The position numbers and the translations under genes were made by a program. Positions 45,191-64,000 of a stretch of DNA of 64,000 nt are shown here, in pieces (the first letter of the stretch is position 1; each line of letters starts with the position of its first letter). The stretch comes from Campylobacteraceae bacterium. GTDB taxonomy: Bacteria; Campylobacterota; Campylobacteria; Campylobacterales; JALSKU01. The notes beneath the pieces were generated by a model that was not told where the DNA came from, made no database searches, and saw only the letters and a list, made by a program, of their open reading frames with translations. The stretch covers positions 3,700 to 67,699 of the forward strand of contig JALWUQ010000088.1 in NCBI GenBank assembly GCA_026993075.1, read 5' to 3'.

Positions 45191-45273
45191 GCTCTAAAAT
45201 ATAGATATAACAATATACATAAAAATTTAAGTAAAAAGTGATTATAATACAAGCAATATTTAAAAGGTTTTAT

Positions 45274-45912
45274 ATGATGAATATAAAGGAAATACCATTT
45301 TTCTCCAAGTTTAATGATATTGAAATAGCCAAACTTGATATTTCATCAAGTATTAACTATTTTGATAAAACAGAAATTATATATTATGAAGGTGAGGAGC
45401 CAAAATACTTATATGTGCTTCTTGAAGGTAGTACCAATATATATAAAACAAATTCCAAGGGAAAGCAGCTTTATATACATACAATAAATGCTATTGATTT
45501 TCTTGGAGAAGTTGCAATTTTTAAAAAAATTCCTTATCCGGCAACTGCAGAATGTGAAAGAAAATGTAAAGTTTTAAAAATTGATTATTTTAATTTGGAT
45601 GATGATTTTTGTAAAAAACTATTTTTTTGTCAGAAATTATTAGAATCTTTATATAAGCGTATACTGATTTTAATGAATGTGATTGATGATGGGTTTTTAA
45701 CATCCAAAGAGAGGGTTATAAAATTTATTTTAGAAAATGTAAATGATTTTTACAATGCCAAATATACAGATATTGCAAAAAAACTAAATATGACGCCTGA
45801 AACTCTTTCAAGAGTATTAAATAAACTTAAAGAGGCTGGCTATATAAGTATTGAGGAAAATCATAAAATTAAAATTATCTCAAAAGAAAATTTGATTAAA
45901 CTAAGTGAGTAA
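45274..45912 (+). CDS. Crp/Fnr family transcriptional regulator (paralogue 1)
   Basis: cNMP-binding-like beta-barrel (LYVLLEGS..IYK....GK....H......FLGE.A) and C-terminal HTH TPETLSRVLNKLK. There is no N-terminal Cys cluster. The start was moved from GTG 45238, which overlaps the -10 element, to ATG 45274. Confidence 0.85.
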   Translation: MMNIKEIPFFSKFNDIEIAKLDISSSINYFDKTEIIYYEGEEPKYLYVLLEGSTNIYKTNSKGKQLYIHTINAIDFLGEVAIFKKIPYPATAECERKCKVLKIDYFNLDDDFCKKLFFCQKLLESLYKRILILMNVIDDGFLTSKERVIKFILENVNDFYNAKYTDIAKKLNMTPETLSRVLNKLKEAGYISIEENHKIKIISKENLIKLSE

Positions 45913-45915
45913 TTT

Positions 45916-46554
45916 ATGTATTTAAAAGATATAGCACTATTTAGTAACTTAAATAAAGAAAATCTTGAGGCGATAGATAAAATATCAACATTAGTTGAAT
46001 TAAAAAGTGGAGATATTTTATTTTATGAAGGAGAAATGCCATACTTTTTACATGTCTTGATAAACGGAGTTATTAAGTTATACAAAACAGACTCAAAAGG
46101 AAGACAAAAATATATACATCAATTTACTCCTATATCTCTTATAGGTGAGTTAGCAAATTTTGAAAATGTAACTTTTCCGGCTACGGCCGAAGCAGTAACA
46201 AAAGTAGAAGTTTTAAAAATAGATTATAAAAGGTTACATGTTAATTTTTTTACAAACCCAAATATATCTTTCAGCATTATAAAATCATTATCGCAAAAAA
46301 TAAAAATTTTATCAAATTTTATTCATCAGGAAATGATATTATCAACCGAAGCTAAAGTGGTAAAGCTTATTGTTGAGCATAGTGAAATATTTGAAAAATT
46401 AAAAAATACAGATATAGCTGCAATAACTAATATTACTCCAGAAACATTATCAAGAATTTTGACAAAGCTTAAAAAATTAAATTATATTAAGTTTAATGAT
46501 AAACATGAGTTAGAAATTTTAGATAAAGAATCTTTAACTAAAATGTTTACTTAA
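45916..46554 (+). CDS. Crp/Fnr family transcriptional regulator (paralogue 2)
   Basis: Same architecture as paralogue 1, with HTH TPETLSRILTKLKK. It starts 3 nt after paralogue 1. Confidence 0.85.
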   Translation: MYLKDIALFSNLNKENLEAIDKISTLVELKSGDILFYEGEMPYFLHVLINGVIKLYKTDSKGRQKYIHQFTPISLIGELANFENVTFPATAEAVTKVEVLKIDYKRLHVNFFTNPNISFSIIKSLSQKIKILSNFIHQEMILSTEAKVVKLIVEHSEIFEKLKNTDIAAITNITPETLSRILTKLKKLNYIKFNDKHELEILDKESLTKMFT

Positions 46555-46921: not shown

Positions 46922-46935
46922 TTGATTTAAATCAA
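46922..46935. promoter_or_regulatory. FNR/CRP-type box upstream of the nor-nirS operon
   Basis: TTGATTTAAATCAA is a perfect TTGAT-N4-ATCAA palindrome. -10-like hexamers (TATAAT 46954, TACAAT 46959) lie 25-31 bp downstream of the box centre. Confidence 0.6.
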
Positions 46936-47010: not shown

Positions 47011-47337
47011 ATGTCAGGACCATTATATGTGCGACCAATTATTGCAGTAAATGATTTCCTTCCCATCTTTTTATCAGCAGCATCTATTTTAATATTTGGA
47101 TTGTTGTATGCAAGTATAGTCACGCTTGTTAAAATGCAAAAACTAAAAAAAATATATATGTTTTTAGCATACTTTTTTTGGATTTTGCAAGTTTACTGCA
47201 CATATTTTCTTACGGAAAAAATCCATAGTCAGCCTTTTACAGTTAAAGCGATGATTATAGCGATGGTTGCTTATCTTATAGTACCATATATATATTTCTA
47301 TTTGATAACTAAATCCGAAGAAAGATATGAAAAATAA
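47011..47337 (+). CDS. Three-TM membrane protein, first gene of the nor operon
   Basis: 108 aa, AAGGA SD, three hydrophobic helices. It ends 13 nt before the norC ATG. Confidence 0.55.
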   Translation: MSGPLYVRPIIAVNDFLPIFLSAASILIFGLLYASIVTLVKMQKLKKIYMFLAYFFWILQVYCTYFLTEKIHSQPFTVKAMIIAMVAYLIVPYIYFYLITKSEERYEK

Positions 47338-47350
47338 AAAAGGAGGACAA

Positions 47351-48052
47351 ATGTCTAAGAAAAAAGTTTCCGTTTGGTCGGATAATCGTTTTTGGCAAAG
47401 ATCTGCTGCTTGGGTAACAGGATTTGCATCACTTTTGTTGATATGGTTAACATTTAACACAATGGGTCAGATAACAATGGGAACCCAAAAAGATATAAAT
47501 AATCATATTGATAAAAGAGTCCCCTCAGCAACTGTAATTAACTATGAGATTCAGTATAAAATGAATCCCAGAAGAGGACATGAAGTACCTGTTATAGGTG
47601 GCGGTGACGGGAAAGGTAACTCTTTGTTTAAAGTAAAAGAGAAGTTTTTTGGAAGAGATAATTATACTCAAAAAGAAGCTGATGCACTTTTACATTTAGG
47701 TAAACTCACCGAACAGGCTAAAAACTGTATGGATTGTCATACACTTCTTGGTAACGGTGGATACTATGCACCTGATCTTACAAAAGCTTGGCTTGATCCT
47801 GCTTGGGGAAAAAACGGACCGATGCAGGCGATGACCGGTAAAAGCACAAAAGCAGAGGCAATGGCAGAGTTTCTACAGCACCCTGGCAAATATCCAACGC
47901 ATGCAAGAATGATGCCAAATCTTCATATAACAGCTAAAGAGGCCAAAGGACTTGTAGCATTTTTGAAGCAAATGTCCTCTATTGATACAAATGGCTTCCC
48001 GCGAGGCTTTGGAAAGATTAAAGAAGGAGTAGTTTATGCAAGGTCGAAATAG
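47351..48052 (+). CDS. norC: Nitric oxide reductase cytochrome c subunit (extended form)
   Basis: N-terminal anchor, heme motif CMDCH followed by TLLGNGGYYAPDL (NorC signature), and ATG 47351 after AGGAGG. At 233 aa it is longer than classical NorC. Confidence 0.85.
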   Translation: MSKKKVSVWSDNRFWQRSAAWVTGFASLLLIWLTFNTMGQITMGTQKDINNHIDKRVPSATVINYEIQYKMNPRRGHEVPVIGGGDGKGNSLFKVKEKFFGRDNYTQKEADALLHLGKLTEQAKNCMDCHTLLGNGGYYAPDLTKAWLDPAWGKNGPMQAMTGKSTKAEAMAEFLQHPGKYPTHARMMPNLHITAKEAKGLVAFLKQMSSIDTNGFPRGFGKIKEGVVYARSK

Positions 48053-49460
48053 TTATAAATATGAATCACAAAAATTAGCGAGTTGGTATTTTACGGTTGC
48101 TGTCATTCTTTTTGGTGCACAACTTCTCTTAGGCTTAGTTGCAGCTATTCAATTTATTTATCCATCTTTTTTATATGATATATTAGATTTTTCAATTGCA
48201 AGAATTATACATATAAATGCATTAGTAGTCTGGATGTTATATGCAATGATTGGTGCGGTATATTATCTTTTACCGGAAGAAACGGGCATAGAGACAGTGG
48301 GTATTGGTATGGCAAAACTGTTGTTTTGGATATTGACTCTTGCAGTTGCTGTGGTTGTTCTTGTATTTATCTTTGTTCAAATTGGACCTGGAAAAACAAG
48401 TACGATCTGGTTTATTACTGAGGGAAGGGAATATCTTGAAGCACCAAGATGGGCTGATATCGGTATAGTTGTTGTAGTTCTTGGCTTTTTAGCAAATACT
48501 TTTTTGACATCTATAAAAGGTAGAAGAACCGGTATTATGACTGTAATTTTGGCAGATATGATAGCACTCGCAGGCTTATATTTAGCAGGTATGTTTTTTA
48601 CTGATAATATCACAATGGATCAATACTGGTGGTGGTGGGTTATACACCTTTGGGTTGAAGCCACTTGGGAGGTTTATGTCGGTGCATTAGCCGCTTATGG
48701 TCTTATAAAAATAGTAAATGCAAATAGACAAGTTGTTGAAATGTGGCTTTGGATAGAAGTTGCAATGCTGTTTGGTTCAGGTATATTAGGTTTGGGTCAT
48801 CACTATTTCTGGATAGGAACTCCAGAGTATTGGTGGGAAATTGGTGCTTTATTTAGTGCATTGGAGCCAGTACCTTTGATAGGAATGTTTGTTCATGTAT
48901 TGTATGACTGGGGTAAAGAAAAAGGTATGGCAATGAATGAGGGAAAAGATACAACTTCCAATAATACTCCTGCACTTATGTGGCTTGTTTCAAATGGTTT
49001 TGGTAACTTTTTGGGAGCTGGTGTCTGGGGATTTTTCCACACACTTCCGCAAGTAAATATCTATACTCACGGAACTCAGTTCACAGCTGCACACGGTCAT
49101 CTTGCTTTCTTTGGAGCTTATGCAACTATATTAATCGCAATGTTTTATATAGGAGTTCAAGGTAAGCACGGTATCAAAAAACTTAGATCTACATTTGCCT
49201 CAAATATGGCAATATTTCTTTTAACATTTGGAATGCTTGGAATGACTGTAGCATTAACTATCGCTGGATATGAGCAGGTGCTTATCGCAAGAGCCCAACT
49301 TGGTGCTACTTGGAATGCATTCTTTTTAGCTCAAAATCAGCAATGGTTTGCACAAGCTATGGATTGGAGATTTTTTATGGGTATTGTAATGACAGTCGGA
49401 TTTGTTTATCTTGTTAAGGATTTATTGACAATTGCTAAAAATCCTAAAAATGTTTACTAA
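48036..49460 (+). CDS. norB: Nitric oxide reductase large subunit (cNOR)
   Basis: 12-TM heme-copper oxidase fold with conserved His-containing helices (HINALVVW, WWWVIHLWVE, GLGHHYFWIG, AAHGHLAFFGAY). Confidence 0.93.
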   Translation: MQGRNSYKYESQKLASWYFTVAVILFGAQLLLGLVAAIQFIYPSFLYDILDFSIARIIHINALVVWMLYAMIGAVYYLLPEETGIETVGIGMAKLLFWILTLAVAVVVLVFIFVQIGPGKTSTIWFITEGREYLEAPRWADIGIVVVVLGFLANTFLTSIKGRRTGIMTVILADMIALAGLYLAGMFFTDNITMDQYWWWWVIHLWVEATWEVYVGALAAYGLIKIVNANRQVVEMWLWIEVAMLFGSGILGLGHHYFWIGTPEYWWEIGALFSALEPVPLIGMFVHVLYDWGKEKGMAMNEGKDTTSNNTPALMWLVSNGFGNFLGAGVWGFFHTLPQVNIYTHGTQFTAAHGHLAFFGAYATILIAMFYIGVQGKHGIKKLRSTFASNMAIFLLTFGMLGMTVALTIAGYEQVLIARAQLGATWNAFFLAQNQQWFAQAMDWRFFMGIVMTVGFVYLVKDLLTIAKNPKNVY

Positions 49461-49678: not shown

Positions 49679-51388
49679 ATGAAGTTAGTAAAGACGATTA
49701 GCATTGCTATAAGTTCGGTAGCAATAGTTGGGTTTATGCAGGCTAACGCATCGGGCATGGATTATGCTAAAGTATATAAACAGCAGTGTCAGGGTTGTCA
49801 CGGTGCAATGCATCAAGGGGGAGTTGGAGCAAATCTTAAACCAAAGGCATTAAAAAGAGCAAATGCTCAAATGTTAGCTGAGACAATACTCTATGGTAGA
49901 GCTGGAACTGCAATGCCAGCGTGGAAAAGTATATTTACAAAAAACGATGCTGCAGGTATGGTTAGTTGGCTTATAGATTGGAAAAATACAGTTAAACTTA
50001 AACTGTCTCTTAAAGATGTCAAAAAAACTTGGAAGAAATTGGCAAATAGGGTAGAATTATATAAGAAATATCCAAAACCAGTTGATGTAAAAAGTGTAAA
50101 AGATATCACAATAGCAGTAGAAAGAGATGCATCTTTAATAGATTTTATCGATGGAACAACTGGAAAAATTTTGAGCAGGCATAAAGCAGGATATGCTATT
50201 CACATTGCTGAAACAAATAAAAGAATTCCAAGATATGCTTATTGTATAAGTAGATCAGGAATACTCACAATGTTTGATTTAAATGCTCCAGGTCAGCCGG
50301 CACTTGCTAGTGTTCATGTTGGAGAAAGTAGTCGTGGTATAGCAGCTAGCCCAGATGGAAGATATGTGATGGTAGGAAATTATAATCCTGGTGGTGCAAT
50401 TTTACTTGATGCTATGACACTAGAGCCTTTAAAAGTGTATCCTACTTCGAGTGTAATAAATACTCAAGGGGATATTGGGCCAAGTAGAGTTGCTTATATA
50501 GCTCAAACACCATATAGACCATATTTTACTTTTGCATTAAAAGATGGTGGACATGTTTATGTTGTTGATTATTCAAAACCTGGTTTTCCTATCATAGCTG
50601 ATATCCCTAATATAGGTAAAATATTACATGATGCTTTTGAAAACGAAGGAGTTGATGAAGGTAGATTTGTTTATGTTGCGTCTCAAGGAAGCAATTTAAT
50701 GGGTGTAATAGATCTTAAAACATTAAAACTTGCTGCTAAGATTTATACAGGTCCTGGTACTAAACCACACCCTGGTCCTGGAGCTTCTTGGTATAATAAC
50801 AAATATGGTCAGCTTGAAGCTACAAATAGCATGAATACAGGTGATGTTGTAATATGGAATAAAGACAATGAAGTTGTAAAAAATGTTATAACTGCAGGAG
50901 GTGGTTTATTTGTAAATACAGGCGAAAATACTCCATACATTTGGTCTGATTGTGTTCTTGGCGGTCCGCATAATTACAATAAATTATATCTTATAAACAA
51001 GCAAACTTTAAAAGTTGATAGAATTATTGAAGTAGGCAAGAAAAAAGGTCATTTAGTAGATGCACATACGGGTAAGATTCTTCAAACTTGGGATGCAACT
51101 CAGTATAAAACTGTTAAACATAAGGAGATTAAATCTAAAATTTCTAATGAATATATAGTACCTTATACTGCCAAGCATGGTGTAAGAGTTGCTAAACCTG
51201 TTCAACCAAGACTTCTTCATGCTGAACCTGCAAACTTTGGTAAATGGATGACTATAAGTGAATGGACAACAGGTCGTATAGGTATTTACAATGCAAAAAC
51301 TGGTAAATTTATAAAGTATATTTACAATCTTACAACACCAACTTTTACATATTCAATTTCTCATAGAGAAAAAGTTCCTGGTGCTTAG
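49679..51388 (+). CDS. nirS: Cytochrome cd1 nitrite reductase
   Basis: Signal peptide, N-terminal heme c domain (CQGCHG...MPAW) and a long d1 beta-propeller domain, 569 aa. GGAGG SD. Confidence 0.93.
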   Translation: MKLVKTISIAISSVAIVGFMQANASGMDYAKVYKQQCQGCHGAMHQGGVGANLKPKALKRANAQMLAETILYGRAGTAMPAWKSIFTKNDAAGMVSWLIDWKNTVKLKLSLKDVKKTWKKLANRVELYKKYPKPVDVKSVKDITIAVERDASLIDFIDGTTGKILSRHKAGYAIHIAETNKRIPRYAYCISRSGILTMFDLNAPGQPALASVHVGESSRGIAASPDGRYVMVGNYNPGGAILLDAMTLEPLKVYPTSSVINTQGDIGPSRVAYIAQTPYRPYFTFALKDGGHVYVVDYSKPGFPIIADIPNIGKILHDAFENEGVDEGRFVYVASQGSNLMGVIDLKTLKLAAKIYTGPGTKPHPGPGASWYNNKYGQLEATNSMNTGDVVIWNKDNEVVKNVITAGGGLFVNTGENTPYIWSDCVLGGPHNYNKLYLINKQTLKVDRIIEVGKKKGHLVDAHTGKILQTWDATQYKTVKHKEIKSKISNEYIVPYTAKHGVRVAKPVQPRLLHAEPANFGKWMTISEWTTGRIGIYNAKTGKFIKYIYNLTTPTFTYSISHREKVPGA

Positions 51389-52862: not shown

Positions 52863-53944
52863 AGAAGGCAGTAATAGTTTTATTGATTTTAATAGTTTCA
52901 GTTTTAAATGCAAGAGATAAAATATTTGTAGTAGAGAGAGAAAATTCAACTCTTGCTGTAATTGATCATCATCTTTTAGTAGATGAGATAAAACATATGC
53001 ATAATTTCAATCATGCCGTTGTTAAATTTAAGGGAAAAGATGGTTATGTTATAACAAGAGATGGATATATAATCAAATTTAATCCCATTAAAGATGTGAT
53101 AGAAAAAGAGTACAGAACAAGTCCGAGTGCAATTGGATTTATAATAGGCAAAAACTTTGTTGCTGTTGCAAATTATGGTAGCAAAACTGTGGAAGTGGTA
53201 AGTAGAAATTTAGTACCGATTCAAAGCATAAAAACAAATAGTAGAAATGTAGGTATCAAATTATATAAAAATTATCTTGTTTTCGAATGCATGGATACGG
53301 ATGAAATATGGGTTATGAAAAATATACAACCAAAAGCTAAAAAACCTCATTTTGTAATCTATAAAAAATTTAAAAATGTAGGAAAAGTCCCTTTTGATGC
53401 TCTAATAGATAAAAATCTTTATGTATCAGGATTTTTTAATTCACCTTTTATAGGTGTATTAAACTTAAATACTATGAAATATAAAACCATACCATTAAAT
53501 TTGGGAAAAAGAGATAGGGTGCTGAAAGTACCTCATTTTGGGTTTTGGAGCGTTTCAAAAGGATACTTTTTTATTCCTGCCGTGGGTGCTAGAAAAGTTT
53601 TTGTATTTACCCATAAGTTTAAGCTTGTAAAAGCTATAAATGTTATAGGCAATCCAGTTTTTACCTCTTTAAGTCCAAATAAAAAATATCTTGCAGTTAC
53701 CTTTAGCGGTAAAGATTTTCCAAGAGTTCAGATAGTTGATACAAAAACTCTAAAAATTATAAAAAATTTTAAATTTAAGGGTATGGTTTTACATGTAAGA
53801 TGGTCAACTAATGGTAAATATTTGTATGTTTCAGTTAATGGTGCCAATGAAGTACTGGGTATAAATACACATGGTTGGTGGAAAAACTTCTCATGGCCTG
53901 TGCCTAGATCATCAGGAATTTTTATATATAAAACTGGAAATTGA
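52859..53944 (+). CDS. nirF: Heme d1 biosynthesis protein, cd1-type beta-propeller (NirF/NirN-like)
   Basis: Signal peptide, 361 aa with repeated beta-strand propeller character, no CxxCH, located between the cytochrome c gene and nirJ. Its ATG overlaps the upstream stop (ATGA). Confidence 0.7.
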   Translation: MKKAVIVLLILIVSVLNARDKIFVVERENSTLAVIDHHLLVDEIKHMHNFNHAVVKFKGKDGYVITRDGYIIKFNPIKDVIEKEYRTSPSAIGFIIGKNFVAVANYGSKTVEVVSRNLVPIQSIKTNSRNVGIKLYKNYLVFECMDTDEIWVMKNIQPKAKKPHFVIYKKFKNVGKVPFDALIDKNLYVSGFFNSPFIGVLNLNTMKYKTIPLNLGKRDRVLKVPHFGFWSVSKGYFFIPAVGARKVFVFTHKFKLVKAINVIGNPVFTSLSPNKKYLAVTFSGKDFPRVQIVDTKTLKIIKNFKFKGMVLHVRWSTNGKYLYVSVNGANEVLGINTHGWWKNFSWPVPRSSGIFIYKTGN

Positions 53945-55071
53945 TTATGTTAAGAATATCTAATCTTATTGATTCTGTCATTAATGATAAAAAAGAGAGA
54001 TTACTTGATGGCAATATAATAATATGGAATTTTACAAATCGCTGTAATCTTTCATGCCATCATTGCTACTCTTATGCAGATCCAAGCTCAAAAGATTTTT
54101 TAACTACTGAATTTATTCTTGATTCTATTAAAGATTTAAAAAAAGCAAATGTAAAATTTGTTATTTTCAGTGGCGGTGAACCGCTTATAAGAAAAGATAT
54201 CTTTGAAATTGCTGATGCTATGAGAAAAGAGGGAATAATTACATATCTTTCTACAAATGGTCTTTATGTAAATGAAAAAAATGTTAAAGATATTATAGAT
54301 AAATTTAATTATATAGGAATAAGCATAGATGGAATTGAGAAAGTCCATGATAAGTTCAGAGGTTTGGACGGAGCTTACAAAAAAAGTATAGCTGCTATAA
54401 AATTGATACAACAAAATGGAGGTAATGCAGGCATTAGGTTTACTATGACAAAAGAGACTGAAGATAGTTTTTATGATATATTTAAACTTGCAGAAGATAT
54501 TGGTGTTGACAAGCTATATCTTTCTCACCTTGTTTATTCTGGAAGAGGACTTGAAAATTTAAAAATTGACATAAGCAAAGAAAAAAGATTAGAATTTGTA
54601 AATTTTATAATAGATAAGGCTATGCAGTATCAGCGTGATAATGTCAATATAGATATAGTCACAGGCAATATGGAAATGGATGCGATAATACTGCTTGAGA
54701 AATTCTCAAAAATTTACCCGGAATTAGAAAATAAAATGATCAAAAAACTCAGAGACTGGGGTGGCAATAGTGCCGGAAAAAGACTGGGTAATATTGATTT
54801 TATTGGTCTTGTCAAACCAGATCCTTTTTTTCCTTTTACAATAGGAGATATGAATGAAGAGAGTTTTGATAAGATTTGGCTCAATAAAGATAATGATATA
54901 CTAAGAAGACTTAGAAAAAATCCAAGAAGCATTAGTGGGAAATGTACAAATTGTAATGTTATAGATATATGTAATGGTGGCAGTAGGAGTAGAGCTTATG
55001 CATTACATAATGATTTGTGGGCAGAGGATCCGTCTTGTTATCTAAATGATTTTCAAAGAGGGATTAAATAA
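53941..55071 (+). CDS. nirJ: Radical SAM heme d1 biosynthesis protein NirJ
   Basis: Radical SAM motif CNLSCHHCY and a C-terminal Cys cluster (CTNCNVIDICNGG). Lies in the nir context. Confidence 0.85.
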   Translation: MIMLRISNLIDSVINDKKERLLDGNIIIWNFTNRCNLSCHHCYSYADPSSKDFLTTEFILDSIKDLKKANVKFVIFSGGEPLIRKDIFEIADAMRKEGIITYLSTNGLYVNEKNVKDIIDKFNYIGISIDGIEKVHDKFRGLDGAYKKSIAAIKLIQQNGGNAGIRFTMTKETEDSFYDIFKLAEDIGVDKLYLSHLVYSGRGLENLKIDISKEKRLEFVNFIIDKAMQYQRDNVNIDIVTGNMEMDAIILLEKFSKIYPELENKMIKKLRDWGGNSAGKRLGNIDFIGLVKPDPFFPFTIGDMNEESFDKIWLNKDNDILRRLRKNPRSISGKCTNCNVIDICNGGSRSRAYALHNDLWAEDPSCYLNDFQRGIK

Positions 55072-55826: not shown

Positions 55827-56166
55827 TTTGTTTTCTATTTTTTAAATTCAATGTTTTAATGGTCTGATTTTTATCATTATTTATAGACAAAACAGATCCT
55901 GTCAACTTAAGATGTTTTTTGCCCCACTGTCTTTCAAGTTGATCAAGCCTTTTAAAAACTATTTCATTACTTGGTTTTTCTTTAGTCTTAGTTTTCTCGT
56001 TAATTATAGTCAGACCTCCTAATCTTTTTTCGAGCCTATAAGGAATATAGGCAGATAAAGCATTCATAACCACTTTATTTTTTGTTTTTGGCATAGCATT
56101 TTTAAATGCTATAAAACTTAAAAACATAAATACAAATATTAAACCTATAAACATCTTTCTACTCAT
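55795..56166 (-). CDS. Hypothetical membrane-anchored protein, translationally coupled to sirC
   Basis: 123 aa with an N-terminal TM (FIGLIFVFMFLSFIAF) and a K-rich soluble part. Its ATG overlaps the sirC stop (ATGA). Its 3' end overlaps the nirE 3' end by 32 nt. Confidence 0.45.
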   Translation of the reverse strand: MSRKMFIGLIFVFMFLSFIAFKNAMPKTKNKVVMNALSAYIPYRLEKRLGGLTIINEKTKTKEKPSNEIVFKRLDQLERQWGKKHLKLTGSVLSINNDKNQTIKTLNLKNRKQINFVHSFFGI

Positions 56167-56735
56167 TGTTTTTTCCTTTTTTTGTCAAAAAAAAGTCTTG
56201 CTTTTTCATCTAAATATTTCATCCTTAAAGCTCCTTTTGGAAGTTTTTTCCTATAATTTTTCATATTGACTAAAAAGTTATCAATACCATTAGGCAAAAT
56301 TTGTTCTATATACTTTCTTAAGTACTTGGCAACAGCTGGTGAAGAACCGGAGGTGGAAACAGATATAGTCAAATCACCTTTTTTTATGTACGAGGGAAAG
56401 ATAAAATCACAATAATCGACTGAGTCAACAGCATTACATAAAATATGTTTTTTTGAAGCTTCTGTAAAAATATCTTTTTGTATTTTTACTTTATCTACTG
56501 CAATTATAACAATATCATAGCCATTTATATTATTTTTTTCATATTTTTTTTCAATAGTGGATAAATTATTTCTAAAAGCGATTGTTTTGATTTCGTCACT
56601 GATTTTTATTGCTATTATTGATATATTTTTAGTAAAATCAAGTAAGTGTACAAGCTTATCTTTTGCAATTTTTCCACCTCCTACAATGAGAACTTTTTTA
56701 TTATCAATTTTAATATATGCAGGAAAATAATTCAT
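56163..56735 (-). CDS. sirC: Precorrin-2 dehydrogenase / sirohydrochlorin ferrochelatase (CysG N-terminal / SirC-Met8 type)
   Basis: FP.Y......KVLIVGGGKIA..K...LL NAD-binding start and 190 aa are typical of the siroheme synthase N-terminal domain. Confidence 0.8.
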   Translation of the reverse strand: MNYFPAYIKIDNKKVLIVGGGKIAKDKLVHLLDFTKNISIIAIKISDEIKTIAFRNNLSTIEKKYEKNNINGYDIVIIAVDKVKIQKDIFTEASKKHILCNAVDSVDYCDFIFPSYIKKGDLTISVSTSGSSPAVAKYLRKYIEQILPNGIDNFLVNMKNYRKKLPKGALRMKYLDEKARLFFDKKRKKQ

Positions 56736-56788: not shown

Positions 56789-56802
56789 TTGATATTAATC
56801 AA
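56789..56802. promoter_or_regulatory. FNR/CRP-type box shared by the divergent sirC and ccp promoters
   Basis: TTGATATTAATCAA is a perfect TTGAT-N4-ATCAA. TATAAT hexamers start 29.5 bp from the box centre on both strands (plus strand 56825-56830; minus strand 56766-56761, as TGTTATAAT). Confidence 0.65.
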
Positions 56803-56874
56803 TGATTTAATTTTGATATTTATATATAATTAATACAAAAGATATGATTATTGGCTAAAAAAGGAGTTTTATGG

Positions 56875-57951
56875 ATGAAGAGTATTATTGTTCCGATATT
56901 TATAGTATTAATTATCCTGATAACAATAATCTTTATGCCTGTTTTTTTGCCAAAAAGAGGTCTAAAAAAATTTACAGATAATCAATTAAGGCAAACAGCA
57001 CTCTCAAGAAATATGTTACCTGTGCCAAAAACTTATAATAAATTATTAAAATTGGTAAATACGAAAGATAATCCAATGACAAAAGACAAGATATTACTTG
57101 GAAAAAAACTTTTTAATGATACGATATTATCAAAAGATAACACTATCAGCTGTGCATCTTGTCACATATTAAAAAATGGAGGTGCTGACAACCTTCCAAC
57201 TGCAATAGGATACAAAGGAAGAGCTAACCCTTTTCATTTAAATACACCAACAGTTTTAAATGCTGCATTGGCAAAAGAATTAAATTGGGATGGAAGTGCA
57301 AAAACTGTAGAAATTCAAGCAGATGGTCCATTGCAGGCACATTTTGAAATGAATTCAATACCTAAAACAATAGTACAAAAACTAAAAAGCAATCCATACT
57401 ACTCAAAAGAATTTAAAAAGATTTTTACAGGAGGGGTTAGTTTTGAAAATGTAAAAAAGGCAATAGGGGCTTACGAAAGAACTCTTCTAACTAGAGGGTC
57501 TTATGATAGATTTTTAGAAGGAGACAATAATGCAATAAGTAAAAAAGCAAAAAAAGGATTTGCCCTTTTTATAAATTTGGGTTGCAAAGGTTGTCATACA
57601 GGGATGAGTGTAGGTGGTCAGAGTTTACAAAGATTTCCTTTAAGACAGTGTGCCACCATATATGAGACTGATTGTATGTCAGGCAATAGAGTATTTCCAT
57701 TTAAAAATATTGGTGGTTTTTTGGGTAAAGACAATATGCAACTTTTTCGTGTTCCAATACTAAGAAATATTGCAAGAACCGCACCTTACTTCCATAATGG
57801 TATAGTAAAAAAATTAAGTAAAGCAGTAAAAATAATGGCTATTCATCAAATAGGCGTAAATCTTTCCAAAATTCAAATTAGTGAGATAGTGGCATTTTTA
57901 AAAACATTAAATGGTAAAATAGTTGATTATAATATAACTTCAAAGGAATAA
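56875..57951 (+). CDS. ccp: Diheme cytochrome c peroxidase (CCP/MauG family)
   Basis: Two heme motifs (CASCH, CKGCH), FRVP.LRN and APYFHNG motifs. ATG 56875 follows AAAGGAG. Confidence 0.88.
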   Translation: MKSIIVPIFIVLIILITIIFMPVFLPKRGLKKFTDNQLRQTALSRNMLPVPKTYNKLLKLVNTKDNPMTKDKILLGKKLFNDTILSKDNTISCASCHILKNGGADNLPTAIGYKGRANPFHLNTPTVLNAALAKELNWDGSAKTVEIQADGPLQAHFEMNSIPKTIVQKLKSNPYYSKEFKKIFTGGVSFENVKKAIGAYERTLLTRGSYDRFLEGDNNAISKKAKKGFALFINLGCKGCHTGMSVGGQSLQRFPLRQCATIYETDCMSGNRVFPFKNIGGFLGKDNMQLFRVPILRNIARTAPYFHNGIVKKLSKAVKIMAIHQIGVNLSKIQISEIVAFLKTLNGKIVDYNITSKE

Positions 57952-57952
57952 A

Positions 57953-58948
57953 ATGAGAAATCAAGTGCTATATGAATTGCAAAAAAATTTTCCACTTGTT
58001 CAAAGACCATTTGAACAAATCGCAAAAAAACTAAATATGGATGAAGATGAAGTGATAAAAATTGTACAAGAAGAGAAAGAAAATAAGACCATAAGACAAA
58101 CATCTGCTATTTTTGATACAAGAAGATTGGGATACAGTTCATCATTGGTGGCTTTTAAAGTTGATAACAGTGAGATTGAAGATACAGTTAAAATATTAAA
58201 TTCTCACCCTGGAATATCACATAATTATGAAAGAAATCATGACTTTAATATCTGGTTTACCCTTGCTGTCTCCCCCGAAAGCTCTTTTGGTTTGGAAGGA
58301 ACTATAAAATTGCTGGCAAGGTTATGTAATGCAGTAGAATATATAACACTACCTACATTAAAACTTTTTAAAATTTCAGTCAAACTTGATACGACAGGTA
58401 AAGCTGCAAAAAAAGAAAAAATTGAAAAGAAAAAATTTATAGAATTAGAGTTAAATGAACTTCATAAAAAAGTTATTAAATATTCACAAGAAGATATAAA
58501 GATAGAAAAAGAGCCTTTTAAGGATATGATTGATAAAATTGGTATAAATTATGAAACTTTTTTTAAAACTTTAGATGAACTTAAAAAATGTGGTGCAATG
58601 AGAAGATTTGCTACAATCTTAAATCATAGGAAAGCAGGTTTTAGTGCAAATGCCATGGTTGTTTGGGATATAGATGAAGAAAAAGCTGAAAAAATGGGTG
58701 AAAAAATGGCAACTTTCAGTGCCGTTAGCCACTGTTATTTAAGACCAAAATATAAAAATTGGCCTTACAATATATTTTCTATGGTACATGGTAAAACAAA
58801 AAAAGAGACAAATTTAATAGTAAAAGATATAGAAAATGAAGTAAAATACAATTCTAATCAATATCTTTATTCTTCAAGAGAATTTAAAAAAGTAAGAGTA
58901 AAATACTATACCGATGATACAATAAAATGGGAAGATAAGTATAAATAA
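57953..58948 (+). CDS. Siroheme decarboxylase, fused two-module NirD/L/G/H (AhbA/B-like, Lrp/AsnC fold)
   Basis: Two tandem modules each start with a winged-helix segment (L..LQ..FPLV.RPF..IA, and HKKVIKYSQEDIKIEKEPF) followed by an HPG.SH.YER-type segment. 331 aa, in the nir context. Confidence 0.8.
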   Translation: MRNQVLYELQKNFPLVQRPFEQIAKKLNMDEDEVIKIVQEEKENKTIRQTSAIFDTRRLGYSSSLVAFKVDNSEIEDTVKILNSHPGISHNYERNHDFNIWFTLAVSPESSFGLEGTIKLLARLCNAVEYITLPTLKLFKISVKLDTTGKAAKKEKIEKKKFIELELNELHKKVIKYSQEDIKIEKEPFKDMIDKIGINYETFFKTLDELKKCGAMRRFATILNHRKAGFSANAMVVWDIDEEKAEKMGEKMATFSAVSHCYLRPKYKNWPYNIFSMVHGKTKKETNLIVKDIENEVKYNSNQYLYSSREFKKVRVKYYTDDTIKWEDKYK

Positions 58949-59068
58949 CTAACCTTACGCACTTTTTTCTCGAAAAGTCCTACTTTTCGTAGCTTTAGGG
59001 GGTTGTAGGGACTTTGAGTTTCTGCCACTATAACGAGCTTTGTTTATTATAGTGAGTAAGGTCAGTTG
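58946..59068. repeat. MITE-like intergenic repeat, copy B (with a 42-nt internal insertion)
   Basis: 58946-59014 aligns to 6088-6157. The right terminus TAAGGTCAGTTG (59057-59068) matches the right ends of copies A and C. The insert 59015-59056 carries its own CACTATAA/TTATAGTG hairpin and TGAG at both ends. The left TAA is the nirDL stop codon. Confidence 0.75.
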
Positions 59069-59097
59069 TAATTTTAAAATTTAAAGGAGATTTTTAT

Positions 59098-59469
59098 ATG
59101 AAGGAATTTTTTGAGTTAGAGATAGGGTATATAGTAATTGCACTATTTTTTCTTGCGGTAACTGCTATCGTTACAACAAGAAGTTTTATGCCAAAAGGAG
59201 CATTTAAAAAAGGTATGATTGCAGTTGGAATCATTGTTGTGGCATTCATTTTATTTCATTATTATTCTACAGTAAGTAGGATGGAAATGATTGCAAAAGA
59301 GTTTAATAGTGGCAAAACGATACTTTGTGAAAATAGAGAAATGTTAAATGGCCCTAATGCAATCATTATTTTAAAAAAAGCTGGTTGGAGCTTAAAAAAC
59401 GGTATATTTACAAATCCTGAGTTTCATAGAGATTTTTATAGTGCAAGGTGTGCAGTAGATTTAAAATGA
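59098..59469 (+). CDS. Two-TM membrane protein with a Cys-containing soluble tail
   Basis: 123 aa, AAGGAG SD, two hydrophobic helices, then a ~60-aa domain with two Cys. Its TGA overlaps the ATG of the downstream Crp/Fnr gene. Confidence 0.55.
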   Translation: MKEFFELEIGYIVIALFFLAVTAIVTTRSFMPKGAFKKGMIAVGIIVVAFILFHYYSTVSRMEMIAKEFNSGKTILCENREMLNGPNAIIILKKAGWSLKNGIFTNPEFHRDFYSARCAVDLK

Positions 59470-60131
59470 TTGATCTAAAAATAAAAAAGAATTTAAAAAA
59501 AATTGAAATTTTTAATTGTTTAAATGAAGATGAATTTGATTTATTGGCATCTATTTCCAAATTAAAAATATATAGTTCACAAAATACTATTTTTTATGAG
59601 AAAGAAAAGCTTGACTTTATATATTTTTTGATAAATGGTGAGGTTAAGTTATATAAAATTGATAGATTTAACAGTGAGGTATTTTTAAATAAATTAGAAA
59701 AAAATTCTTTTATATATACTGTATCAAATATGTGCGGAGACAGTGAATATGGAGCCTTTTATAGTGTGGAGGCATTAAGTGATTGTGAAGTATTACTGAT
59801 AGATGTAAAAAAATTTAAGTCTCTTTTTTTAACAAAATATGAAATTCTAATGAGAATTTTAGAAGAATCATATAAATCTATATTGCAATTACAATATATT
59901 TTAAATAGAGACATAGTATTTGATGCAATGGCAAAAGTTGCATATATGCTCTCAAACAACTTGGATTCATTCAATAAAATGAAAAAGCATGAAATTGCAT
60001 ATTATCTGCATATTCAGCCGGAAACACTCTCTAGAATCTTAAAAAAATTAAGCAGAAATGAGTTTATCAAATCAGAAAACGGTAAAATTATTATCTGTAA
60101 TATTGATAAATTAAAAAAAATATACGAATAG
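59466..60131 (+). CDS. Crp/Fnr family transcriptional regulator (paralogue 3)
   Basis: cNMP-binding-like barrel (IYFLINGEVKLYK) and HTH QPETLSRILKKLSR. No N-terminal Cys cluster. ATG 59466 is preferred over the ORF-track start. Confidence 0.8.
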   Translation: MIDLKIKKNLKKIEIFNCLNEDEFDLLASISKLKIYSSQNTIFYEKEKLDFIYFLINGEVKLYKIDRFNSEVFLNKLEKNSFIYTVSNMCGDSEYGAFYSVEALSDCEVLLIDVKKFKSLFLTKYEILMRILEESYKSILQLQYILNRDIVFDAMAKVAYMLSNNLDSFNKMKKHEIAYYLHIQPETLSRILKKLSRNEFIKSENGKIIICNIDKLKKIYE

Positions 60132-60143
60132 GACTTATGTAAA

Positions 60144-61487
60144 ATGTTGAATAAGATAAGCAGTAAAATAAATTTTATAGGCGGGGCATTATCGTTTGTT
60201 GTAATTATGAATGTGATACTGACAATATACTTAACTAGAAAACAAGAAGGCGATTCTTATATCGTAAATATAGCCGGACGCCAGAGAATGTTATCTCAAA
60301 AGATAACAAAAGAGATATTTTACACAAAAAGTACCGGGAGCTTTGATTTTGAAACCTTAAACAGTGATATGAAAATTTTTCAAAAGAATTTATATATATT
60401 GATTGACGGAAATAAAAAATTAAATGTTTATAAGCCCCCAAATAAAGAAATTCAAGATAAACTAAAACAGGTTTTAAATATATGGGTACCTTTTCAAGGT
60501 AAAATCAAAAAACTTGAACAATATACAAATGATATCAAAAAAAGTAAAGAAATCATGATGAATAAATTTAATGAAATTTTAAAGATTTCAGATAAGGTAG
60601 TAAAAGCTATGGTAGATTATAATTTACCGGGTAGTTATATTGATCTTTCCGGCAGACAAAGAATGCTATCTCAAAGAATGGGGCTTTATTTTATAAGATA
60701 TCTTGATACTTCAAATCAAAATGATTTTTATATATACAATAAATCAATGAAACTTTATAATAATACAATAATTAAATTTGTAAATAATAATAAAATAAAA
60801 AGCAATAAAAATTTATATAAAATAGTTTCTTTAAATTATAAATATTGGAAAAATTTTCAAATTTATATAAGAAACTTAATGGAAAAAGAAAATAAAATAC
60901 AAAATACAATCAAATATATTCATGAAAACAATATAAAGCTTTTAAAAAATATGAATGACGCGGTTTGGCTATACACAAGTTATAGTGAATCGAAAAATAA
61001 TTTTATTAAGAATTTCTTGTATATTTCCGGCGTGTTGGCATTATTAATTATTTTATATACTTATATGATTGCAAAAAATTTAGAAAAACATGTCTTAAAC
61101 TTTGTAAGTAGAGCAAAAGAATTATCAAATAAAGACCCAATCTCTGAAAATGGTGAGTTGACTATAGATTTTTGTGGTGAAGATGAATTAAAAGAAGTAT
61201 CAACACATATTAATAAATTTGCCAATAAAGTAAAAAATGCTTATAATTATTCCAATGAAGCTTTAAAAAGAGCTGAATTAGCAGCAAAAGAATTACAAAT
61301 AATCGCTGATGATATTGAAATGGCAATAGATGATTCTGGTGTAAAAGATAAGAAAAATTTTGGTAAAAATATAGATGCAACTGAAGATATAGCCATAGAA
61401 TCTGCCGAAAGTTTACTTCATGTTTCTAATATGATTAAAAGGTTAAAAGAGAATCTTTCTGATATTTTAGACTCATATTCAAAATAA
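60144..61487 (+). CDS. Membrane sensor with two NarX-like N-terminal (PilJ-type) periplasmic modules and a HAMP-like segment, but no recognisable output domain
   Basis: TM1 at aa ~11-31. GRQRMLSQ occurs at aa 45-52 and 170-177. TM2 at aa ~291-312. A HAMP-like ...GEDELKEVSTHINKFANKV... is followed by a ~70-aa acidic helical tail. I see no H-box, ATPase or MCP hairpin motif. Confidence 0.65.
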   Translation: MLNKISSKINFIGGALSFVVIMNVILTIYLTRKQEGDSYIVNIAGRQRMLSQKITKEIFYTKSTGSFDFETLNSDMKIFQKNLYILIDGNKKLNVYKPPNKEIQDKLKQVLNIWVPFQGKIKKLEQYTNDIKKSKEIMMNKFNEILKISDKVVKAMVDYNLPGSYIDLSGRQRMLSQRMGLYFIRYLDTSNQNDFYIYNKSMKLYNNTIIKFVNNNKIKSNKNLYKIVSLNYKYWKNFQIYIRNLMEKENKIQNTIKYIHENNIKLLKNMNDAVWLYTSYSESKNNFIKNFLYISGVLALLIILYTYMIAKNLEKHVLNFVSRAKELSNKDPISENGELTIDFCGEDELKEVSTHINKFANKVKNAYNYSNEALKRAELAAKELQIIADDIEMAIDDSGVKDKKNFGKNIDATEDIAIESAESLLHVSNMIKRLKENLSDILDSYSK

Positions 61488-61510
61488 TCATAAATTTATA
61501 ATTTAATTTC

Positions 61511-61524
61511 TTGACTTAAGTCAT
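61511..61524. promoter_or_regulatory. FNR-like palindrome in the napA promoter
   Basis: TTGACTTAAGTCAT has a perfect 12-bp palindromic core TGACTTAAGTCA. Its half-site TTGAC differs from the TTGAT of the other two boxes. -10-like hexamers at 61540 (TATAAT) and 61548 (TAAAAT). Confidence 0.5.
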
Positions 61525-61582
61525 AGATTTTTGAATTCTTATAATGATAAAATTGCTTCATATCATTTTATAAGGAGAGAAT

Positions 61583-64000
61583 ATGGCACTTTCAAGAAGA
61601 GATTTTCTTAAAAGTTCGGCCGCAGCAAGTGCTGCCGCAGCTATTGGGATGAGTATTCCAAGCGATGTAGAAGCTGCAGCAACTCAGGCTCAAAGTGGCT
61701 GGAGATGGGATAAAGCAGCTTGTCGTTTTTGTGGAACAGGTTGTGGTATTATGTTGGCTACAAAAGGGGAAGGGTTAAATAGAAAAATTGTTGCTGTAAA
61801 AGGTGATCCTGCTGCTCCAGTTAATAGGGGACTAAATTGCATCAAGGGTTACTTTAATGCCAAAATTATGTATGGTGCTGACAGATTAACCACACCACTA
61901 CTTAGAGTAAATGAAAAAGGCGAATTTGACAAATATGGTGAATTTAAGCCTATTAGTTGGAAAAGAGCTTTCGATGAAATGGAAAAACATATCAGATATG
62001 CTCTTAAAAAGAATGGTCCAGAAGCCGTAGCAGTTTTTGCAAGTGGTCAATACACAATCACAGAGGGTTATGCAGCTCAAAAAGTTATGAAAGCCGGTTT
62101 TAGAAGCAATGCTTTTGATCCAAATGCAAGGCACTGCATGGCATCAGCTGTTGTCGGATTTTATCAAACATTTGGTATTGATGAGCCAAGTGGTTGCTAT
62201 GATGATATTGAACTTACAGATACCATTATCGCATGGGGTTCAAATATGGCTGAAATGCACCCGATACTGTGGTCAAGATGTACAGATAGAAAATTAAGTG
62301 ATCCAAATCATGTAAAAGTCGTAAGCATTCAAACTTATACAAACAGAACTTGTGATTTAGCTGATGATACTATCATCTTTAGACCCCAAACGGATATGTT
62401 GATGTGGAACTATATAGCAAGAGAAATAGTTTACAATCATCCTGAATCCATTGACTGGGATTTTGTAAAAAAACATATTATTTTTGCTGCTGGTCCTGTC
62501 AATTTAGGATATGGCATGAGAAGAAAAGGTGAGCCATCTCTGACTCCTGTTAGAGCAAACGGCAGTGCCGGAAGATACGATGCAAAAGAGATGCAAACTA
62601 TCAACAAAGAAATGAGTAAAACAGTCGGACAAAGAGAAGGTCCAGCACTTGAGCCTTACGGATACAAAGCTGGTGATACCATGAAAAATACTCCTGGAAC
62701 TTTAAAGCACTGGGAGATAAGTTTTGAAGAGTATAAAAAGTCACTTGCACCTTATACACTTGATTATGTTGCAACTGTTTCAAAAGGTGATCCTGATGAA
62801 GATATAAACAGTTTTAAAGCAAAACTTCAAAGATTAGCAAATCATTACATTGAAAAAGGGAGAAAAGTAGTAAGCTTTTGGACAATGGGCATGAATCAAC
62901 ATACTCGTGGAAGCTGGGTAAATACACTCTCATATAATGTTCACTTTTTATTAAACAAACAAGCAAAACCCGGCAATGGTGCTTATTCATTAACAGGCCA
63001 GCCAAGTGCTTGTGGAACTGCTAGAGAAGTTGGAACATTTACCCATAGACTTCCTGCGGATTTGATGGTAAAAGTTAAAAAACATAGAGTTATTGCTGAA
63101 AAAAGATGGCATATACCGGAAAATACTTTAAATCCAGTTGGAAATCAACATATTATGAAAATTCACAGAGACATAGAAGACAGATTTGTTAAATTTGCAT
63201 GGGTTAATGTTTGCAATGCATATCAAGACAGTGCAAGTGCGAAACATTGGATAAAAGCGGCAAGAGAAGTAAAAGATTTATTTTTGGTTACAAGTGATGG
63301 ATATCCTGGAATTTCTGCTATGGTTTCAGATATGGTATTGCCAAGTGCAATGATATATGAAAAATGGGGAGCTTATGGAAATGCCGAGAGACGAAGCCAA
63401 TGGTGGAGACAGCAGGTTCTTCCTGTGGGAAATGCCATGAGCGATACCTGGCAATGGGTTGAGCTTTCAAAAAGATTTACAGTAGATGATTTATGGGGTC
63501 CATATACTCTAAGAAACGGTAAAAAACTACCTGATGTCAGAGGAGCTGCCAGAGCTATGGGATATAGAGGCGATACGACAATGTATGAAATCCTTTTTGC
63601 AAACGAAAGAGGAAAATCTTATAAAGCCGACAGAGTTAATGATCCAATCCAGCGAGGATATGATGATAGTGAAGTATTTGGAGATGAAAGAAATGTAGTC
63701 GGAAGTGACGGCAAAGTATTTAAAGGATACGGTTTCTTTATTCATAAATACCTTTGGGAAGAGTATGCTGACTTTGGAAGAGGTCATGGTCACGACTTGG
63801 CACCTTTTGATGTATATCAAAGAGTAAGAGGATTAAGATGGCCGGTAGTAAACGGTAAAGAGACTCTTTGGAGATTTAATGCCGATTATGACCCTTATGT
63901 TAAGCATTTTGCAGGACCAAATGTACAATTTGCATTTTATGGACCTATTGCAAAAGCACTTCCTCATGGTGATTTAAGAGGCGTGAGAGTTAAAAAGAAA
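61583..64000 (+). CDS. napA: Periplasmic nitrate reductase catalytic subunit (3' end runs off the window)
   Basis: Absent from the ORF track because it has no in-window stop. Hand translation gives [24 protein letters not shown]... (twin-arginine signal) and then CRFCGTGCG (4Fe-4S motif). The frame stays open for 806 codons to the window end. AAGGAGAG SD. Confidence 0.93.

Follow-up and report, generated by a model that had tools for sequence, protein, structure and literature searches.

The sensors NarX and NarQ, acting with the regulators NarL and NarP, control nap- and nrf-type genes. Neither system (NarXL or NarQP) is known from Wolinella, Sulfurimonas, Sulfurospirillum, Arcobacter or the enterohepatic Helicobacter, which rank among the main nitrate reducers of vents, sediments, aquifers and guts. 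Nss regulators of the Crp/Fnr fold have been described in Campylobacterota, namely NssA, NssB and NssC of Wolinella succinogenes and NssR of Campylobacter jejuni, with boxes of the type TTGA-N6-TCAA (Nss consensus quoted in PMC11539149). Genetic work in W. succinogenes traced the nitrate response to NssA. Reviews credit NssA with increasing Nap, Nrf and Nos when nitrate is supplied, and according to one of them it is unknown how Nss factors sense their signals; in the cited literature they are treated as stand-alone sensors. A known nitrate receptor is the chemoreceptor McpN (PA2788) of Pseudomonas aeruginosa. The structure of its ligand-binding domain (LBD, 6GCV) shows nitrate on the dimer axis, R61 is essential, and the N-box consensus was defined as [IVL]-[ND]-x-A-G-x-Q-R-M-L-[ST]-Q, whereas the double PilJ domain of P. 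aeruginosa PilJ is without N-box and does not bind nitrate (Martin-Mora et al., PMC6381276). Here, we analyzed a stretch of 64,000 nucleotides from a Campylobacteraceae bacterium (contig JALWUQ010000088.1; the whole stretch is called the window) in which the gene of a Crp/Fnr-family regulator is followed by the gene of a 447-aa transmembrane receptor with two N-boxes and no output domain, and then by napA.

On the available evidence we lean towards a phosphorylation-independent receptor/Crp-Fnr pair, in which the nitrate-type receptor would act on its partner regulator by direct contact. The literature searched, from which subscription papers were mostly missing, yielded no account of this receptor or of an association between it and Nss regulators, so that an earlier mention (e.g. 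in Kern & Simon, 2016) is possible.

An output-less receptor with two N-boxes

The receptor consists of a first transmembrane segment (TM1), a periplasmic double PilJ domain resembling the helical bimodular (HBM) type, a second transmembrane segment (TM2), a HAMP-like segment and a second helical module, after which the protein stops. PilJ was the sole Pfam match of the 447-aa protein; HAMP, HisKA, HATPase_c and MCPsignal gave no match at E≤1, and a search against NCBIfam returned nothing significant. When a profile of 117 family members was compared with solved structures, the best match was the double PilJ domain of P. aeruginosa PilJ (7zjr, 3e-18), followed by the McpN LBD (6gcv, 7.5e-14), with NarQ as a marginal match (0.008). 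An AlphaFold2 (AF2) model based on the 117-member alignment (pLDDT 79 overall and approximately 90 in the periplasmic part) predicts an elongated, bimodular helical bundle for the periplasmic part. Its last helix continues without a break through TM2 into the first helix of the cytoplasmic part (222-329), after which come a 17-aa loop (330-346) and two further helices (347-398 and 403-446). Foldseek searches with this model retrieved P. aeruginosa PilJ 7zjr (6e-7), the McpS HBM domain and McpN.

Two database searches identified 288 and 188 relatives that are 26-99% identical to the sequence used in each search. With few exceptions they are 437-473 aa long, cover 98-100% of the query and have PilJ as sole Pfam domain; a shorter form of 327-346 aa contains one PilJ module followed by the same tail. 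In an earlier interpretation made from the DNA letters without database searches (the sequence-only reading), the C-terminal 135 aa had been proposed to lack a transmitter and a frameshift-truncated kinase had been considered unlikely. Both proposals were borne out, as neither the profile searches nor 30 family tails revealed a transmitter, the homologues are not longer but have a uniform length of about 440-460 aa, and the tail motif is kept. A truncated kinase or a pseudogene of a methyl-accepting chemotaxis protein (MCP) is ruled out by the uniform homologue length and the conserved tail. In the proteome tables of Nitrosophilus labii the orthologue WP_187648281.1 (443 aa) is listed as detected, placed between the Crp/Fnr protein WP_187648280.1 and NapA WP_187648282.1.

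Each of the two PilJ modules carries an N-box, in agreement with the motif GRQRMLSQ that had been noticed twice in the receptor (aa 45-52 and aa 170-177). In the profile alignment N-box 1 (VNIAGRQRMLSQ) pairs with INVAGAQRMLSQ of McpN 6gcv, and R48 of the receptor occupies the position of McpN R61. Among 117 receptor sequences, no variation was seen at G45, R48, M49, L50, Q52, Q172, L175 or Q177, and at least 90% of the sequences retain R173; the family variants can be written as [IV]N[IV]AG[KRQ][QE]RML[ST]Q for N-box 1 and [IV]D.[SA]GRQRML[ST]Q for N-box 2. Because the N-box motif is experimentally defined, nitrate, possibly also nitrite, appears the most likely ligand of both modules. A cassette that works as proposed but responds to nitrite or another oxyanion, or to a different ligand in each module, has some points in its favor: NarX and NarQ bind nitrate, nitrite and sulfite at one site, N-box 2 contains S for A while many copies of N-box 1 contain E for Q, and in Sulfurospirillaceae the cassette adjoins the nitrite reductase genes nrfHAIJ. 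We nevertheless regard this as rather unlikely, given that N-box 1 fits exactly the consensus derived from a nitrate-specific receptor and that the commonest neighbour of the cassette is nitrate reductase.

Two further proteins, one encoded at L020:5923-7614 (563 aa) and one designated P0222 (546 aa), contain four consecutive PilJ domains each. Four N-box matches were found in the former by regular expression, and in P0222 all four PilJ stretches carry G-K/R-x-R-M-L-[ST]-Q after a signal-peptide-like N-terminus (MKKIILSLLFAVLGFA…). Both are devoid of TM2 and of a cytoplasmic tail and could be soluble periplasmic multi-site nitrate-binding proteins.

The cytoplasmic tail of the receptor comprises 135 residues with a net charge of -8 and an isoelectric point of 4.9, values that equal the family median. 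Little or no variation occurs at E348 and L349 ('…EDEL…') or at E414, D415 and I416, the last three of which belong to the family motif T-E-D-I-A-I-[EQ]-S-x-E-x-L at aa 413-424, and the tail alignment contains no conserved His. Pfam searches with 30 family tails yielded no HAMP, no MCPsignal and no other family, only coiled-coil noise, and a tail-only profile matched a single entry in the PDB, the HAMP domain of HtrII, with a marginal E of 0.08. A search of 1.84 billion cluster representatives with this profile retrieved only 168 clusters at E≤1e-3; the strong matches were proteins with two or one PilJ domains, and the weak ones (1e-9 to 1e-4) were bona fide MCPs that carry PF00015 beyond the region aligned to the tail. 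By hhalign, the whole tail is co-linear with the Pfam-HAMP region of MCPs and the next ~85 residues, before MCPsignal (probability ~95.5%), and tail positions 7-55 align to the Pfam-HAMP region of the MCP P0322. The MCP motifs equivalent to the tail motif read …SEEAAIQTTED… and …SEELAIRTAED….

The homology suggests that the tail begins with a divergent HAMP and continues with another helical module, which may itself be HAMP-like; both would descend from MCPs, and the kinase-control hairpin is absent. Since its homologues are the HAMP and next ~85 residues of certain MCPs, the receptor looks like an MCP-type receptor stripped of its signalling hairpin. The sequence-only reading had described a HAMP-like stretch and an acidic helical stub. 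The HAMP-like character is supported by the MCP-HAMP profile alignment and the HtrII match (E 0.08), whereas the Pfam HAMP model matches none of 30 tails; the stub is indeed acidic and helical, but with its homology to the MCP HAMP and ~85 following residues it is not an unrelated one. As a separate observation, P0322, P0334 and other MCPs with dCache, sCache and 4HB sensors contain an ~85-aa module between HAMP and MCPsignal with the motif SE[ED]xAI[QR][ST]xED, which is homologous to the receptor tail and has no Pfam description.

An MCP-like tail without signalling domain, together with the label 'methyl-accepting chemotaxis protein' that some sources give to receptor homologues, would also be expected of a functionless, decaying chemoreceptor remnant. 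However, length is uniform and sensor and tail residues are invariant across 28-98% identity and several genera, the gene pairing described below is strict, and the protein is detected in N. labii. On account of the conservation and the protein detection a relic is essentially excluded, and we consider it extremely improbable.

Pairing of the receptor gene with a Crp/Fnr gene

Loci were gathered by a genome scan, exact-protein look-ups and a tail-anchored metagenome scan, and pairing was counted over the 88 loci in which the receptor gene is complete and preceded by 700 nt or more of sequence. An intact Crp/Fnr gene is located directly upstream on the same strand in 87 of the 88 loci, and the 88th contains a split copy. 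The gap between the two genes is -4 to +20 nt in 86 loci, with a 4-nt overlap in 18 of them. As clustering of the 88 loci by receptor identity still leaves 74 groups at 95%, 22 at 70% and 8 at 50%, the pairing signal does not arise from near-duplicates; the paired loci include Wolinella, Helicobacter, Arcobacter, Sulfurospirillaceae and the genome AP025696.1 ('Nitro…'). A conserved linkage to Crp/Fnr genes in related genomes, on which the sequence-only reading depended, is therefore seen in 88/88 loci including the split copy, and linkage to nap or nrf is frequent.

The order Crp-receptor-napAGHBFLD was found in the clade of the window, in AP025696.1, in Arcobacter CP041403.1 and in the clade with a single PilJ module. 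In Sulfurospirillaceae the order is nrfH-nrfA-nrfI-nrfJ-Crp-receptor, and in Wolinella succinogenes DSM 1740 (receptor CAE10265) it is hcp<- Crp-receptor ->(TauE)<- napAGHBFLD. Helicobacter contains an isolated Crp-receptor pair among tatC, queA, gidB and an EamA gene, with no nap or nrf nearby. Overall, napA lies at most 1.5 kb downstream in 36/70 loci with enough sequence. No receiver-domain gene adjoins the pair in annotated loci; the closest such gene was found in L029, ~3.5 kb upstream, as part of another pair that includes a 7TMR-DISM kinase.

These neighbourhoods bear on the alternative that nitrate is sensed by the receptor but the signal goes to a protein encoded elsewhere, for example an MCP, a histidine kinase or a membrane respiratory complex such as NapGH, with which the receptor might heterodimerise or which it might modulate; the adjacency to the Crp gene would then reflect only shared regulation or a shared regulon. 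Such a scheme would be compatible with the tail being homologous to the HAMP-proximal region of MCPs, as HAMP-type helices can pack with related receptors, and with the frequent location of the cassette beside nap genes. Yet the strict neighbour is the Crp/Fnr gene (88/88 loci, -4 to +20 nt spacing), the pairing is kept in Helicobacter without nap or nrf nearby, and no kinase or che gene recurs beside the pair in the loci for which neighbours were listed. Since it is the regulator gene that the receptor gene adjoins, even where no nap gene is near, an unlinked partner is disfavoured and, in our judgement, improbable.

Three variations of the locus were observed. In Helicobacter ganmani CIP106846T (L015:5337-5998) the partner is split into two overlapping ORFs of 140 and 99 aa and the receptor gene is intact, which could be due to a frameshift, a sequencing error or the onset of cassette decay. 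In L029-L033 and L088-L110 (e.g. L029:7001-8002) the gene of a single-PilJ receptor overlaps a member of a distinct Crp/Fnr clade by 4 nt, usually with napAGHBF next and moaA divergent upstream. In the nap clusters of 'Nitro…' and Arcobacter a gene for a small PAS-only protein directly follows napD (L026:16552-17082 and L027:16959-17320), and in L026 this gene is followed by a second, convergent Crp/Fnr gene.

The partner regulator, its candidate target site and the surrounding genes

The window regulator is composed of a cNMP-binding-like domain and HTH_Crp_2, with the recognition helix PETLSR at aa 185-190, a helix common to the partners and to other Crp/Fnr paralogues. The window regulator has no Fnr-type Cys-X2-Cys-X5-Cys motif, its first 80 residues containing a single Cys (C18). 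The partners form a cluster of their own, separate from the remaining Crp/Fnr paralogues of the same loci, among them the two further paralogues of the window (45238-45912 and 45916-46554), and residues E134, D153, L166, N170, K174, Q184 and R197 are conserved specifically in the partner clade. The window regulator and the syntenic partner of W. succinogenes share 42% identity, the latter and the nap-upstream regulator of AP025696.1 share 46%, and for the nap-upstream regulator of N. labii the published identities are 44.8% to NssA, 29% to NssB and 26% to NssC (N. labii paper). Judged by these figures, the partners are probably the orthologues of NssA. In a figure legend of the N. labii paper the gene between regulator and napA is given as 'hypothetical protein', without discussion. 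The two other paralogues of the window form a tandem with a 3-nt spacer that precedes norC/norB (47327-49460), and both group with the non-partner paralogues.

A TTGAC-N4-GTCA[AT] box was found in 40/40 distinct spacers between receptor gene and napA, mostly 71-75 nt from the napA ATG. In the window, the 95 nt that separate the stop codon of the receptor gene from the napA ATG (61583) indeed harbor the FNR-like palindrome pointed out before, TTGACTTAAGTCAT, whose first base lies 72 nt upstream of the ATG; a TATAAT sequence is present at 61540-61545. Control of nap and nrf by the partner would follow from this box and from the published genetics of NssA. Such a box precedes the partner gene in 10/76 loci only, and an autoregulatory box upstream of the partner gene was accordingly discarded as a general feature. 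Two other exact sites were noted in the window. One, TTGATTTAAATCAA at 46922-46935, is located inside the 770-nt spacer before norC, and the palindrome TTGATATTAATCAA at 56789-56802 lies in a divergent promoter region between a 190-aa gene (56163-56735, minus strand) and a cytochrome c peroxidase gene (56851-57951).

The window (G+C content 30%) shows 95-100% protein identity to the metagenome-assembled genome of Campylobacteraceae bacterium S010_16 (L001). The product of napA is 100% identical in L001, and its identity to NapA of relatives is 85-92%. Three ORFs on the plus strand are located between the haem-d1/nir genes and napA (Table 1), in line with the sequence-only reading, which had also correctly described the ATGA overlap (59466-59469) joining the TGA of the 123-aa gene to the ATG of the Crp/Fnr gene and the start of the receptor gene 12 nt past the Crp/Fnr stop. 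An Rfam scan of the window gave nothing, and a promoter/terminator scan of 58800-61700 gave no signal above chance and called no terminators. The 149-nt spacer between the nirDL-like gene and the 123-aa gene contains a perfect 8-bp inverted repeat (CGAAAAGT-cct-ACTTTTCG at 58971-58989) without T-run, which was not called by the terminator scan.

Table 1. Coordinates of the cassette, its sequence elements and neighbouring genes in the window, and of members of the 123-aa family elsewhere.
Feature	Position	Strand	Description
Crp/Fnr-family regulator, 221 aa	59466-60131	+	cNMP_binding (PF00027) 1.7e-11; HTH_Crp_2 (PF13545) 4.5e-10
447-aa transmembrane receptor	60144-61487	+	Pfam PilJ (PF13675) in two stretches, E 1.3e-23
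N-box 1, aa 41-52, VNIAGRQRMLSQ	60264-60299	+	exact fit to McpN consensus
N-box 2, aa 166-177, IDLSGRQRMLSQ	60639-60674	+	fits consensus except A->S
Receptor cytoplasmic tail, aa 313-447	61080-61484	+	HAMP-like helix-connector-helix (…GEDELKEVSTHINKFANKV), then helix-loop-helix
Candidate Crp/Fnr (Nss/Dnr-type) box TTGACTTAAGTCAT	61511-61524	+	conserved in receptor-napA spacers
napA, 5' part (periplasmic nitrate reductase)	61583-64000	+	twin-arginine leader; continues past window end
123-aa two-TM protein	59098-59469	+	two hydrophobic segments; C77 and C118
nirS	49679-51388		flanking gene
Radical-SAM gene	53941-55071		flanking gene
nirDL-like gene	57953-58948		flanking gene
123-aa family members outside the window	L114:5001-5405; L115:5001-5366		

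The 123-aa membrane protein had been put forward as a coupled signalling partner, a role that did not hold up. Among the loci compared by BLAST, it occurs only in part of the closest clade; neither L002 and L008 nor the distant Helicobacter loci L009-L019 encode it. The family is small and unannotated (59 matches), and elsewhere its members accompany denitrification genes: in Sulfurimonas paralvinellae the homologue follows nirDL at a site with no Crp-receptor pair, and in Ca. Thioglobus (SUP05) its neighbours are norCB and a multicopper-oxidase gene. Being absent from most cassettes and tied to nirDL or norCB, the protein was rejected as third component of the module. Judged from these neighbourhoods, it is co-transcribed with the Crp gene here by virtue of the ATGA overlap but is not core to the module and belongs to the nir/nor set; the family appears to represent denitrification-associated membrane proteins common to several phyla.

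Proposed signalling and comparison with known systems

In the mechanism we propose, the two-gene cassette would encode an NssA-type regulator and, translationally coupled to it, a dimeric transmembrane receptor. The stacked double four-helix bundle (HBM/PilJ) would bind nitrate, possibly nitrite, at the dimer axis, with Arg48 and Arg173 taking the place of McpN Arg61, and the binding signal would pass via TM2 to the divergent HAMP and the second helical module. With no catalytic domain and no conserved phospho-acceptor in the tail, the output would most likely be an altered direct binding of the receptor to the co-expressed Crp/Fnr dimer. The ligand could thereby control either membrane sequestration and release of the regulator, like a transmembrane anti-sigma factor, or its activation through the contact itself. 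Once released or activated, the regulator would recognise TTGAC-N4-GTCA boxes, among them that at 61511-61524 before napA, and box binding would turn on nitrate respiration, that is nap here and nrf in ammonifiers. Of this scheme, the domain content, the missing output domain, the conserved N-boxes, the gene pairing and the conserved box before napA are observations, whereas nitrate as ligand, contact between receptor and regulator, and the direction of control are deduced.

Several points weigh against this interpretation. We infer the contact between tail and regulator from gene coupling, and the tail is the part of the receptor modelled by AF2 at low confidence (pLDDT 50-65). The top tail motif (SEDIAIQS.E) is shared with MCPs that have no Crp partner; the conserved motif is therefore probably structural and not a docking site, and the idea of EDIAIQS as a Crp-specific docking site is weakened. 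With respect to the ligand, E replaces Q in N-box 1 in about one third of the family, and the closest solved double PilJ domain, that of P. aeruginosa PilJ, does not bind nitrate, but is N-box-less. With respect to the targets, napA is found beside the pair in only about half of the loci, and TTGA-N6-TCAA-like sites are not enriched across the window (68 found versus 82 expected). Because the window-wide count is not above chance, the phylogenetic footprint upstream of napA is the sole informative evidence for the box. Finally, the Wolinella partner appears to be NssA by an indirect identification.

Compared with McpN, the receptor shares the periplasmic N-box PilJ bundle and the key Arg, and the segment that follows TM2 is HAMP-like by profile alignment. 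In McpN, a single PilJ module is combined with a complete MCP signalling domain feeding CheA, in contrast to the two modules (one in the ~333-aa variant), the absence of MCPsignal and the obligatory Crp/Fnr gene partner of the receptor. For the whole periplasmic region the best match is P. aeruginosa PilJ (7ZJR/8WDF) together with the HBM domain of McpS, with two stacked PilJ modules; however, PilJ has no N-box in either module and is a full MCP, whereas the receptor keeps both N-boxes. NarX and NarQ belong to the same sensor superfamily and share the ligand motif G-x-x-R-M and, as proposed here, the transmission from TM2 to HAMP, and the nap/nrf-type genes that they control are the proposed targets here as well. 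Unlike them, the receptor has no HisKA_3/DHp, no HATPase_c, no conserved His and no adjoining NarL-type regulator, its output would be non-phosphorylative and its match to the NarQ profile is marginal (E 0.008). The partner resembles NssA, NssB, NssC and NssR in its Crp/Fnr fold and its box of the TTGA-N6-TCAA type, and differs from their published description by the adjacent receptor gene.

An analogy can be drawn to the pairs of extracytoplasmic function (ECF) sigma factors and transmembrane anti-sigma factors, in which the regulator gene likewise comes first and the membrane sensor second, often with a 4-nt overlap. Like the receptor, anti-sigma factors combine an extracytoplasmic sensing domain with a small non-enzymatic cytoplasmic domain, and they act by binding the regulator. 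The protein families are unrelated, the receptor contains no anti-sigma domain, the regulator of the cassette is a Crp/Fnr activator, and the binding is here a proposed one.

The cassette thus consists of known parts in a new arrangement, with a substantial chance that it embodies a new signalling logic. In its most far-reaching form, our proposal is that a HAMP-only, output-less nitrate receptor drives a dedicated Crp/Fnr regulator by ligand-dependent, anti-sigma-like contact, provides the nitrate input of NssA, replaces NarX-NarL throughout the Campylobacterota and represents an unrecognised signalling class; to this combined statement we give slightly less than an even chance. The receptor is our best candidate for the sensor that switches on nitrate respiration in Campylobacterota. 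Conserved, expressed and equipped with two nitrate-type sites, it offers a concrete candidate for the nitrate input of NssA. If the direct contact is true, it would mean a new type of partner for Crp/Fnr regulators and a new use for HAMP-only receptors, and it would matter for the genome-based prediction of nitrate and N2O turnover.

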